From Dehalococcoidia bacterium (GTDB lineage: Bacteria > Chloroflexota > Dehalococcoidia > Bin125), in the NCBI GenBank assembly GCA_963555985.3, contig OY820591.1, forward strand, positions 2,176,001 through 2,240,000: a DNA stretch of 64,000 bases, in the 5' to 3' direction. The notes under the pieces were generated by a model that was given only the letters and a program-made list of their open reading frames with translations, did not search any database and was not told the origin of the DNA. This document shows, one piece after another, positions 14,154 to 57,883 of this stretch (the stretch's first letter is position 1; the number at the start of each line of letters is the position of its first letter). Both the position numbers and the translations under genes were made by a program.

Positions 14154-14230
<77 letters not shown>

Positions 14231-36262: not shown

Positions 36263-36371
36263 GCACCCAGTCTAGCCAGCGGTGAAGTCTGCGGGCGGTT
36301 GGAGGTTCATATCCCGGCCTGCGCCTAGCATGAAATCTCAAGCGAGAGCGAGTATCGATTGGAAATGCCGT

Positions 36372-37178
36372 ATGAACACTGAGGCGACGGTGCTTCTGGA
36401 CAAGTACGACGACGGGGTGGCGTTGATCACGCTGAACCGCCCTGAGCGGCTGAATGCGTTTGGGGATGACCTGCTCCAGCGGCTGAGCGAAGCGCTGGTC
36501 GATTGCGATGACGATCCGCAGGTTCGCTGCGTCGCCTTGACCGGCGCGGGGCGCGGGTTCTCGGCGGGGGCGGATATCAACAACATGGGCCGGCGCTCGG
36601 ACGGGCCGCCGCCCGGGCCGGGCGTCGTCAACCGCCGCAGTCATCGCAGCCAGATGCAGACGTCGGGAATGCTGCATGAGATGGGCACGCCGACAGTGTC
36701 GCTGGTCAACGGACCGGCCGCGGGCGGCGGCCTCGGTTTGTGTCTGGCGACCGACTTTCGAATCGCTTCCGAGCGCGCCCGTTTCGTGACCGCGTTCCGC
36801 AACATCGGCGTTTCCGGCGACTACGGCGTCGCCTGGTTCTTGCAGCACATGGTCGGCAGCACCCGCGCCCGAGAACTGCTGATGCTCGATCACCGGATCA
36901 ACGCCGATGAGGCCCAGGCGCTCGGCATCGTGACCAAGGTCGTGCCGCACGACGAATTGTTGCCGCAAGGCCTGGAGTTTTGCCGGGAGATTGCGCAGGG
37001 ACCGACGGCGGTACTGGCGATGATGAAGTGGACGCTGAATTTCGCGGCCACCTCGAACCTGAGCGACTCGCTCTATCAGGAGGGTTCGCACGTGATGCTG
37101 TCGTTCACGGGCGAGGACAATAAAGAGGCGGCGAAGGCGTTCCTGGAGAAGCGTTCGCCGCGATTCGTCGGCCGCTAG
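36372..37178 (+). CDS. Enoyl-CoA hydratase/isomerase family protein
   Basis: TLNRPERLNA, GAGRGFSAGADI, VNGPAAGGG. Confidence 0.92.
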   Translation: MNTEATVLLDKYDDGVALITLNRPERLNAFGDDLLQRLSEALVDCDDDPQVRCVALTGAGRGFSAGADINNMGRRSDGPPPGPGVVNRRSHRSQMQTSGMLHEMGTPTVSLVNGPAAGGGLGLCLATDFRIASERARFVTAFRNIGVSGDYGVAWFLQHMVGSTRARELLMLDHRINADEAQALGIVTKVVPHDELLPQGLEFCREIAQGPTAVLAMMKWTLNFAATSNLSDSLYQEGSHVMLSFTGEDNKEAAKAFLEKRSPRFVGR

Positions 37179-37183
37179 CCCCA

Positions 37184-37220
37184 GAAAAACCGAACCCCGG
37201 GGGGTGAACCCCGGGGTCGG
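37184..37220 (-). terminator. Intrinsic terminator of the riboswitch transcript
   Basis: Minus strand CCGACCCCGGGG-TTCAC-CCCCCGGGGTTCGG followed by TTTTT. Confidence 0.8.
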
Positions 37221-37437
37221 CCAGGAGGAGGGGCAGGGCGAGCGAGAAACCACTGCCCCTGAGTTCGTCGGGCGGTCGTTCCCGACAGGACTCGCATGTT
37301 GGCGGCCGCTGGCTGCCGAGGCAGGGGTGTGGGTTCGTTGCGCGTCGTGACGGGTTAACCGCAAAGAGCCAACCGCTGCATCCACCATGAGTGGCGGACA
37401 GACTCGGCTGGCTCCCGACGAAGCGCGGACCTCCCTC
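37221..37437 (-). ncRNA. Candidate structured RNA or long expression platform downstream of the c-di-AMP aptamer
   Basis: Several stems (AGGGGCAG/CTGCCCCT, TTCGTCGGG/CCCGACGAA, GTTGGC/GCCAAC); no credible ORF. Confidence 0.45.
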
Positions 37438-37576
37438 GGTCGCCTACGGGGTTAGCTGACGGGTTCGGCGCGAGAGAGTGCGCCTGGGAGCCAAAGCTCC
37501 GTTCACCCCAAGTGATGGGTCCCCCGTTTCCCGCAGTCGAAGCGCTCGCGCTGCCTCGCTGGGGAATTCGGCCGTC
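37438..37576 (-). promoter_or_regulatory. c-di-AMP (ydaO/yuaA) riboswitch aptamer
   Basis: GCCGAATTC..GGAAACGGGGGACCCA..TTGGGGTGAA..CCGAACCCGTCAGCTAACCCCGTAGGC consensus blocks in order. Confidence 0.93.
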
Positions 37577-37593
37577 TATTCAGTTGTGCGTTC

Positions 37594-37623
37594 AGAGTAA
37601 CGGGCGCGAACACGAATTGCCAA
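37594..37623 (-). promoter_or_regulatory. Sigma70-type promoter for the riboswitch transcript
   Basis: TTGGCA-N18-TACTCT just upstream of the aptamer. Confidence 0.6.
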
Positions 37624-37660
37624 TCGCGACGGCGGATTCACCGCCAAGAGCGGCGATTCG

Positions 37661-37858
37661 TTACGGCTTGCAGCCCAATGCGAGCAATTCCTTCCGCAGG
37701 TCGTTTATCTGATCGTAAATTTCGCGCAACTCCGGGTTCCCCGGACCAAGCGGCCCATCTCCCGGACCGGGCGACAGGCGGCCAGGCAAGTCGTCGGCGA
37801 GCTTGTTCAGACGCGCGCGTTCCGCGCGGATCTCTGCACAACGATCCGAATCAGCCAT
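37661..37858 (-). CDS. Hypothetical 65-aa helical-hairpin protein
   Basis: GAGGAG RBS; two amphipathic helices around a G/P loop, one Cys near each end. Confidence 0.55.
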   Translation of the reverse strand: MADSDRCAEIRAERARLNKLADDLPGRLSPGPGDGPLGPGNPELREIYDQINDLRKELLALGCKP

Positions 37859-38144
37859 CGTTCTTGCTCCTCAGTCGGTGAGCGCGATCGAGCGCTTCGG
37901 CTTCCAAACGGGTGAGGGCTGGTCTGGCACGGAGGCGAATCCCAATCGACTCCGCCTCGTGCACGACCCGGAACCAGGAAAGATCGTCGGGCGCTTCGAC
38001 GGTGAGCGCCAGTTCGGCGCCGTCGAGCTGAAGCGCCTGCACGAGCTGCCCTCCCGTGCGCTGGATCGATGTCTCCAGCGCGTGCAGCGCCTCATCCAGG
38101 CCGCGCGCGCCGTCCCATTCCCCATGTGCGAGCCAGAGCGCCAT
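37851..38144 (-). CDS. Hypothetical protein (possibly GYD/ferredoxin-fold-like)
   Basis: MALWLAHGEW..GGQLV..LTVEAPDD; overlaps next ORF. Confidence 0.5.
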   Translation of the reverse strand: MALWLAHGEWDGARGLDEALHALETSIQRTGGQLVQALQLDGAELALTVEAPDDLSWFRVVHEAESIGIRLRARPALTRLEAEALDRAHRLRSKNDG

Positions 38145-57807: not shown

Positions 57808-57883
57808 GGGGCTGTAGCTCAGCTGGGAGAGCGTTTGACTGGCAGTCAAAAGGCCGGGGGTTCGAGTCCCCCCAGCTCCACCA
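57808..57883 (+). tRNA. tRNA-Ala(GGC)
   Basis: GGGGCTG acceptor with G3:U70, anticodon loop CTGGCAG, GGTTCGAGTCC, encoded CCA. Confidence 0.97.

Follow-up and report, generated by a model that had tools for sequence, protein, structure and literature searches.

Riboswitches that sense cyclic di-adenosine monophosphate (c-di-AMP) are cis switches located ahead of potassium/osmolyte transport and cell-wall genes. The 64,000-nucleotide (nt) stretch of a Dehalococcoidia bacterium considered here (contig OY820591.1 of assembly GCA_963555985.3, positions 2,176,001 to 2,240,000; hereafter the window) raises the question of what such a riboswitch governs when its transcript holds no credible gene. 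The answer proposed here is that the locus is a self-contained non-coding RNA gene of about 400 nt, which opens with a c-di-AMP riboswitch and whose 3' domain is the regulated output, probably acting in trans, a reading to which a probability of roughly 0.55 is given. That riboswitch and downstream RNA form one conserved unit is held with high confidence, and action in trans by base pairing with moderate confidence. The c-di-AMP-gated non-coding RNA put forward in the initial annotation of the window is thereby supported: the unit is conserved throughout an order, coupled to the aptamer, covarying and non-coding, it matches no Rfam family of its own, and it occurs in one piece in contigs from RNA libraries. 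From 5' to 3', the following features are distinguished.

37594..37623, minus strand: promoter-like region, TTGGCA (37623-37618), 18 nt, TACTCT (37599-37594), assigned by eye and from positional conservation
37426..37583, minus strand: c-di-AMP riboswitch aptamer (ydaO class), RF00379 match, pseudoknot strand included
37357..37413, minus strand: candidate expression platform, a long hairpin (GCCAGCCG...CGGUUGGC) then UCUUUGCGGUU, found as a -25.8 kcal/mol hairpin with a U-tract in the terminator scan
37294..37356, minus strand: variable spacer, differing between genera in length and sequence
37261..37293, minus strand: hairpin A, with outer helix GAGU/ACUC, inner helix UGUCGGG/CCCGACG and loop AACGACCG, from covariation in the own genus and genus g7
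37230..37259, minus strand: hairpin B, a covarying stem with the near-invariant loop UUUCUCGCUCG (37249-37239), part of the covariance model R1
37221..37229, minus strand: single-stranded pyrimidine tract UCCUCCUGG, anti-Shine-Dalgarno-like, with letters conserved in alignment A2
37185..37220, minus strand: intrinsic terminator C, stem 37220-37190 and U-run 37189-37185, from the terminator scan and covariation

The aptamer and its presumed ligand

The canonical ydaO aptamer recognised earlier on the minus strand is confirmed by a search with the RF00379 model, which matches window 37583..37426 (-) over its full length (model positions 1-134, not truncated) with 88.9 bits and an E value of 1.8e-19, the gathering score being 38. 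Within the aptamer, the loop CUCUCUC (37478-37472) pairs with GAGGGAG (37437-37431), a strand that falls inside the Rfam model, to form a pseudoknot whose 7/7 pairs are standard in 33/33 distinct sequences, with one-sided variation in 6/7 pairs; when the partner is slid as a control, 46-57% of the cells are paired. A pseudoknot that joins the loop of an internal hairpin to the 3' tail is reportedly a feature of the class, according to its crystal structures. The sequence GAGGGAGG, noted in the initial annotation as having no start codon in range, is this pseudoknot strand and not a ribosome-binding site.

In agreement with the proposed ligand, the initial annotation having called for a DAC-domain cyclase, the organism's own genome encodes a predicted c-di-AMP cyclase, the DAC domain (PF02457) being matched with 114.5 bits in a 298-amino-acid (aa) open frame. 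Binding of c-di-AMP by the aptamer is predicted from its membership in RF00379. The genome's only other copy of the aptamer lies at G000:C1:714416-714561 (+) (L002/L178) and scores 41 bits. This second aptamer precedes a gene for a 474-aa KamA-family radical-SAM aminomutase-like protein (L178:1819-3243; TIGR00238, 115 bits, below the cut-off of that model).

A conserved RNA domain coupled to the aptamer

In a DNA search among 41 related genomes, two separate conserved blocks were found, namely the aptamer and a stretch some 200 nt beyond it. The loci of the relatives share a common plan, in which the aptamer is followed by a hairpin and U-run (in most genera), the variable spacer, hairpin A, hairpin B, a single-stranded CCGCCUCCUG and the terminator hairpin C, the conserved 3' domain being about 110 nt long. 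The distance from the 3' motif of the aptamer to the loop motif ranges from 157 to 224 nt among 49 distinct units.

The distribution of this domain was followed with R1, a covariance model of the part from hairpin B through terminator C. R1 matches 64/65 genomes of the family, which here equals a whole order (one Dehalococcoidia order, with 10 genera), in 66 copies scoring 48.8-92.9 bits, one copy in each of 62 genomes and two in both G003 and G010; the stretch matched in the own genome is window 37184-37264. Among 151 genomes sampled across the class, high R1 scores were obtained only in the 7 that belong to the family (73.8-91.5 bits), and the best match outside the family reached 29.8 bits, with no aptamer beside it. 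Besides, a pattern scan of one genome per species, covering 185,579 species, found the domain in 15/80 loci among the matches listed, and the titles of these 15, again among the matches listed, name Dehalococcoidia in 8 cases, Chloroflexota in 4 and Chloroflexi in 3.

The domain goes together with the riboswitch. RF00379 is matched directly upstream and on the same strand, at 57-102 bits, in 20/20 separately fetched copies, the aptamer motif is found upstream in 49/49 other loci, and each of the two copies in G003 and in G010 has an aptamer of its own. The sole genome without the domain, G073 (94% complete), has no aptamer either. At the level of genome sequence, the 3' domain is thus as widespread as the aptamer in the order, and coupled to it in every copy examined. 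The initial annotation had allowed for a gene behind the aptamer in relatives, for an unconserved downstream RNA and for a match to a known Rfam family; what was found is that no gene stands directly behind the aptamer in the order's relatives, that the downstream RNA is conserved, and that Rfam 15, searched with permissive filters over 37100-37700, gives besides RF00379 only matches with E values of 3.5-9.3, far below their gathering scores.

The fold of the domain is also under constraint. Folding of the 408-nt transcript yields -199.9 kcal/mol (z = -5.04 against 100 shuffles), which, together with positive covariation, bears out the roughly 220 nt of structured RNA described behind the aptamer. 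Because of register shifts, RNAalifold did not recover hairpin B from the plain MAFFT alignment, and the structure was therefore set by hand and the sequences re-aligned with the model; hairpin A was left out of R1 across genera because MAFFT could not align it. In the resulting model-fitted alignment A3, which holds 50 matches (40 distinct) including a weak outgroup match, 90.7% of the cells are paired compared to 78.9% in shuffles, with both-side changes in 9/17 pairs and 34-67% of cells paired in slid controls. Both sides have changed in 4/9 pairs of the hairpin B stem and in 5/8 pairs of the terminator C helix, the latter having 97.5% of its cells paired. A plain MAFFT alignment of 28 sequences from the own genus and g7, termed A5, accommodates a four-helix model (outer GAGU/ACUC, hairpin A, hairpin B and terminator C) with 98.3% of the cells paired, 6 pairs changed on both sides compared to 0.8 in shuffles, and 27-58% in slid controls. 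For the inner helix of hairpin A, 100% of the cells are paired in these 28 sequences, 2/7 pairs showing both-side and 3/7 one-side changes. In most folds of the other genera, a hairpin of other sequence and length takes its place.

The mutually exclusive pairings proposed earlier are borne out in one half. The local GUCGGG/CCCGAC pairing is that of hairpin A and covaries, whereas the distal partner UUCGUCGGG (37422-37414) has no counterpart on reading the sequences of other genera; in a relative about 87% alike, a G>A change at 37419 falls inside it. A pseudoknot between 'GNGAGU' and loop B was also considered, and dropped because GAGU is a strand of the outer helix of hairpin A.

Between the helices, the conserved letters are concentrated in two exposed elements. 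The letters TCGCTC of loop B are invariant in the 19-sequence alignments. In the tract CCTCCT, C, T, C and T are invariant in alignment A2 and the variants are C/U exchanges only, by which pairing to G is preserved. The CCUCCU tract, which may serve as a seed, resembles the 3' end of the organism's own 16S rRNA (...CACCUCCUUU).

Transcript boundaries and expression

At the 5' side, a promoter consensus scan of 36900-37900 gave 0 promoter-like sites, yet a TANNNT hexamer is placed 12-13 nt ahead of the conserved leader CACAACUGAAUA in 44/46 units of relatives that have the leader motif, the remaining 2/46 being clipped at the edge of the extracted sequence, and (T)TGGCA often lies 17-18 nt upstream of that hexamer. 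The sigma70-like promoter reported earlier is therefore upheld by the conserved position of its -10 element rather than by a consensus score, and transcription would start at about 37588-37586.

At the 3' side, the terminator scan called a single site, with a stem at 37218..37193 of 10 pairs (8 G-C), a 6-nt loop and the tail CGGTTTTTCT. As shuffled sequences give 1.2 +/- 1.0 sites, the scan by itself proves no terminator, and the proof comes from conservation: terminator C is predicted to be strong and is conserved in every copy. A gap of 6 nt separates the end of its U-run from the stop of a convergent open reading frame (ORF; 36282..37178 (+)) for an enoyl-CoA hydratase (ECH_1 match of 186.9 bits), the abutting arrangement that had been described.

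Evidence that the full-length form exists as RNA-library sequence comes from the relative about 87% alike, of which contigs were found in two metatranscriptome runs of one study. The first contig, of 400 nt, corresponds to 37572-37181 plus 17 unlike letters, and the second, of 480 nt, to 37571-37106, with adapter letters at the 37571 end and an extension of 75 nt past the terminator. Both contigs hold the aptamer, the platform, the spacer (in which 10 nt are deleted), the 3' domain and the terminator in one piece. The contigs leave the RNA ends unproven, and the stop of both at 37571/37572 hints only weakly, if at all, at an end of the RNA. In both RNA runs X15 and X16, the parts 36968-37103 and 37580-37647 are uncovered, and these gaps are not usable as evidence; the small shares in many runs labelled as sponge, coral reef or marine have no bearing on habitat.

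Genomic neighbourhood

Upstream of the riboswitch, a 65-aa ORF (37661-37858 (-)) is found on the same strand in 32/49 units (genera g1, g7, g8 and g3) with 60-83% identity. It starts with MADSDRC and ends with LGCKP, has two conserved cysteines and two predicted helices separated by a Pro/Gly-rich linker, is covered by an RNA-library contig of the relative, and has no Pfam or NCBIfam match; a functional tie between it and the riboswitch RNA is possible. A divergent HIBADH-like gene is present in 34/49 units.

Downstream, the hydratase lies within the locus in 36/49 units, and in some genomes 200-470 nt of repeats intervene. Among the loci read in g9, g4 and g3, no convergent hydratase stands behind the RNA; the next ORF, named by eye, is on the same strand and is YjeF_N-like in g9 and g4 and ImmA-like in g3. 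Farther on in the window, genes for SRAP, DinB and PALP are located on the minus strand. G/C-rich inverted-repeat elements (GGGGGGAGAGG paired with CCTCTCCCCCC) occur between terminator C and the hydratase in L008, L016, L017 and L020, and recur upstream of other genes (L190, L198). The window also contains two tRNA genes, at 14157-14230 (-) with 61.9 bits and at 57808-57880 (+) with 70.1 bits.

Outside the order, ORFs begin 30-600 nt behind 5/6 of the aptamers examined (G025, G039). They include an NTP-transferase/CDP-alcohol-transferase pair with clear Pfam matches, alongside ORFs whose MFS-like, radical-SAM and Zn-ribbon matches are weak. The pair, in which the aptamer of L234 (G025) stands ahead of NTP_transf_3 and CDP-alcohol phosphatidyltransferase genes, resembles the enzymes making the compatible solute di-myo-inositol phosphate. 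In L235 (G039) and L232 (G025), which belong to other families, the aptamer is followed within 30-55 nt by Cys-rich ORFs of 75-89 aa (CPKCRGSM.../CPRCKGSM...), one of which has a weak Zn-ribbon match.

Proposed regulation and action of the RNA

The hairpin behind the aptamer looks like an attenuator terminator in the own genome, but its U-tract is weak; clearer sites with a hairpin and a U-run are found at the platform position in units of g8, g9, g4 and g6. A tally of the terminator scan (39/49 units) was left unused because the matches in g7 are not true U-tracts. Considering the own RNA alone, GGGAGCCA (37416-37409) can pair either with the 3' arm of the terminator or with UGGCUCCC inside the aptamer, alternatives that fit an OFF switch. 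The platform hairpin would depend on the ligand. Just past this hairpin, a 9-nt string of the aptamer core, AACCCGUCA, recurs (own RNA 37357-37345 and 37466-37454); g7 keeps AACCCGU where AACCCGUCA recurs, and the repeat could share in switching.

At high c-di-AMP, the bound aptamer would lock the pseudoknot and favour the hairpin 37413-37357, so that transcription would stop ahead of the 3' domain. At low c-di-AMP, RNA polymerase would continue to terminator C and the 3' domain would be made. Once released, the exposed pyrimidine-rich loop B and the CCUCCU tract would most likely pair in trans with purine-rich ribosome-binding regions of mRNAs, so that the c-di-AMP regulon (osmotic and potassium) would acquire a post-transcriptional arm. 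The 3' domain indeed looks like a base-pairing small RNA, in view of its invariant pyrimidine-rich loop, its CCUCCU tract and its terminator, and the invariant loop is equally compatible with a protein partner. In g7, where no clear platform terminator is seen, the ligand may act on RNA structure instead of termination: the pseudoknot strand GAGGGAG, free when the aptamer is unbound, could mask the CCUCCU tract, which would yield a ligand-switched small RNA. The full proposal, namely that low c-di-AMP frees an effector domain which reprograms the translation of osmotic-stress genes order-wide through the loop and the anti-Shine-Dalgarno-like tract, with a possible allosteric action of the ligand in g7 instead, is tentative and put at somewhat less than even odds.

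Several points weigh against the reading as a riboswitch-governed RNA that acts in trans. In the g7 units (37/65 genomes, the largest genus), neither the terminator scan nor reading of the sequences revealed a convincing U-tract behind the platform hairpins, so that ligand-dependent termination is not evident there, and the weakness of the own U-tract adds to this. Alignment A3 was fitted to the model, and its pair counts hence favour the structure; moreover, the relatives' genomes are non-independent samples. The RNA contigs, all from one study, were assembled without strand information, and RNA libraries may contain DNA. The differing contexts of the unit are downstream rearrangements of one ancestral locus rather than independent insertions, because synteny on the upstream side (the 65-aa ORF and the HIBADH-like gene) holds while the downstream gene changes. 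Finally, in a duplex scan of loop B against 4,994 candidate start regions of the own genome (3,137 ORFs, called crudely by GC content at third codon positions), strong sites are no more frequent than for 8 shuffled loops (126 compared to 54-292 per 1,500 windows). As these energies are no better than those of shuffled loops, the ranked list of targets is uninformative.

Two leads to possible targets were noticed. Loop B could form 10 bp, one of them G-U, with CGAGUGAGAA, which lies immediately 5' of the second aptamer (G000:C1:714406). Many g7 leaders of the KamA-family gene are aptamer-less and have a conserved UGAGCGAAUAUGACAAGUA near the 5' end, right after a TAGAAT-like box (L190-L207), a motif not found in the KamA-family leaders of g8 and g3. 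Having been noticed after the fact, this lead is not counted as support. The other is an expanded solute-binding-protein gene with GAGCGAGGGA as its ribosome-binding region. By reading, GYGAGG is present at the ribosome-binding region in about 16/25 orthologous loci; it is also present in 142/2,459 genes of the genome, for which reason this gene is not counted as support either. The gene itself (G000:C1:600512-602533) encodes a long Gln-rich linker and has paralogues around C1:2608000-2622300, the strongly expanded family giving 10 long tblastn matches in the own genome, with as many as 18 scored per genome in the order. As for rRNA, loop B is less complementary to 16S or 23S rRNA than shuffled loops are.

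Alternative explanations

Among the other explanations, the one that survives best, while remaining unlikely, is that the RNA pairs with no mRNA and works as a decoy for a protein, in the manner of EutX and Rli55, or as a c-di-AMP-buffering RNA. An invariant loop of 10-11 nt on a covarying stem suits recognition by a protein as well as by RNA, and no outstanding RNA target emerged from the scan. Buffering corresponds to the second-messenger sponge of the initial annotation, for or against which the present sequence evidence does not decide; a pure sponge would require the aptamer only, and would leave the conserved 3' domain unexplained. ANTAR sites are paired hexaloop hairpins, and hairpins A and B (with loops of 8 and 10-11 nt) do not look like them; furthermore, the locus offers no candidate for a partner protein, except for the unexplained small upstream ORF. 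Riboswitch-led decoy RNAs as such are on record, Rli55 and EutX being listed in a review (PMC13501541).

Still less likely is a cis-acting leader whose output would be read-through past terminator C, antisense to the hydratase (and on toward SRAP/DinB) in g1, g7 and g8 and sense into the next gene in g9, g4 and g3. The terminator abuts the hydratase stop, one RNA contig continues past it to 37106, SRAP, DinB and PALP follow on the minus strand, and a same-strand ORF comes next in g9, g4 and g3. However, terminator C is strong and present in every copy, it is the RNA that is conserved and not the gene beyond the terminator, the repeats part the terminator from the hydratase in some genomes, and the contig that crosses the terminator, being unstranded, could stem from hydratase mRNA. 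For the same reasons, namely the strong conserved terminator and the lack of a convergent hydratase in g9, g4 and g3, the ligand-dependent antisense read-through toward the SRAP-DinB genes that was suggested at first finds poor support.

It is improbable that hairpins A and B form a second ligand aptamer with terminator C as its platform, the whole being a two-input gate. Tandem arrangements with c-di-AMP riboswitches do exist, including the Na+-I/c-di-AMP type, according to the text of a review (PMC9481103), and conserved nucleotides followed by a terminator would agree with such a design. Nevertheless, conservation is limited to one hairpin loop and a short linker, with no conserved junction or internal loop, and no alternative pairing with the terminator was seen. 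In addition, a convergent hydratase was found in every unit tested of the own genus, g7 and g8 (47/65 genomes), which leaves no same-strand gene to control.

A small protein gene, either the 40-aa ORF or the frame from the ATG at 37388, is highly improbable. Between 37150 and 37660, 13 ORFs of at least 20 aa are listed, and the statement that short ORFs only are present, with no gene, holds in part: the 40-aa ORF at 37297..37175 exists and no credible gene was found, but an Arg-rich 430-aa ORF from the ATG at 37388, which crosses the hydratase gene in antisense and is without a Pfam match, had gone unmentioned. An ATG or GTG stands at the conserved 'TG.GAGU' position in 29/49 distinct units of the relatives, and the conceptual peptide is alike in the own genus and g7. 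The start-like codon is however missing in the other 20/49, the frame in which it stands to the invariant loop (0, 1 or 2) changes with the genus, and 1-nt indels separate close relatives (L004, for instance, is shifted by 1 nt). In the RNA contigs of the relative, moreover, the ATG at 37297 reads GTA and that at 37388 is changed. On account of these start-codon losses, frame shifts, indels and altered ATGs, the stretch behind the aptamer is concluded to be non-coding. The 40-aa ORF further has no ribosome-binding site and a stop past the terminator, none of the three codon positions varies in the loop, and the GAGU of the start-like motif is accounted for by the strand of hairpin A.

That the locus is a relic which recently lost its regulated gene, or a misassembly, is scarcely credible: the same aptamer class does sit ahead of protein genes outside the order, but the architecture recurs in 64/65 genomes of 10 genera, many of them assembled in 1-3 contigs, the structure is under purifying selection, and DNA contigs identical to the window cover the locus in two overlapping pieces (36900-37460 and 37444-37900).

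Relation to known systems

The closest likeness to the proposed riboswitch-governed RNA is found in EutX and Rli55 and in SreA and SreB. In EutX of Enterococcus faecalis and Rli55 of Listeria monocytogenes, a riboswitch likewise stands at the 5' end of an independent non-coding RNA with no ORF regulated in cis. There, an adenosylcobalamin riboswitch reportedly determines by premature termination whether the effector part is made (DebRoy and Mellin, both 2014), and this effector is said to consist of ANTAR-binding hairpins that act as a protein decoy. The present RNA differs in that its ligand is a second messenger instead of a cofactor, its host belongs to the Chloroflexota instead of the Firmicutes, its effector would be a new three-hairpin domain, and, in g7, no evident terminator separates sensor and effector.

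RoxS and RsaE are small RNAs of Gram-positive bacteria of the anti-Shine-Dalgarno type, with a C-rich seed. The 3' domain shares with them an intrinsic terminator and, ahead of it, pyrimidine-rich motifs that are exposed in the loop of a hairpin and in a linker, whereas there is no sequence similarity and the RNA considered here is led by a riboswitch. Riboswitch-controlled antisense RNAs reportedly include the S-box antisense RNA of the ubiG operon in Clostridium acetobutylicum, and AspocR of Listeria. In those cases too a riboswitch governs a non-coding RNA, and the convergent arrangement recurs in g1, g7 and g8; here, by contrast, a conserved terminator precedes the convergent gene and the RNA is also present where no convergent gene follows. 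As for ordinary ydaO/kimA-type riboswitches, the aptamer belongs fully to them in score and pseudoknot, with the difference that a conserved structured RNA with its own terminator stands in place of a gene.

SreA and SreB, linked to the S-adenosylmethionine (SAM) riboswitch in Listeria, are said to be terminated leaders of ordinary mRNAs in which the riboswitch element itself pairs with the target. By comparison, the present locus has no mRNA and a separate conserved 3' domain. The likeness lies in a riboswitch-containing transcript that acts in trans, on prfA in the case of SreA and SreB (PMC13501541). That review, of 2026, treats EutX, Rli55, SreA and SreB as riboswitch-derived small RNAs, and the term 'c-di-AMP' is absent from its article text (PMC13501541). 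Where a review of tandem riboswitches deals, in its article text, with c-di-AMP doublets and Na+-I/c-di-AMP gates, it presents them throughout as elements that control genes (PMC9481103). In searches confined to the text of full-text articles, riboswitch-led RNAs acting in trans were found for SAM and B12 only and none for c-di-AMP, and nothing on gene-less ydaO copies appears in the article text of PMC3766115. Riboswitch-governed non-coding RNAs are already known, and the novelty lies in the class of ligand, in the RNA domain and in the phylum.

Significance

For the annotation of genomes, the locus gives a warning that a gene-less aptamer is not necessarily a relic. If the proposed riboswitch-governed, trans-acting RNA is correct, a new structured RNA domain would be defined and c-di-AMP signalling would extend to the post-transcriptional level. 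Regulation would also become testable in an uncultured order of Dehalococcoidia which, judging by the number of its metagenome-assembled genomes, is widespread.

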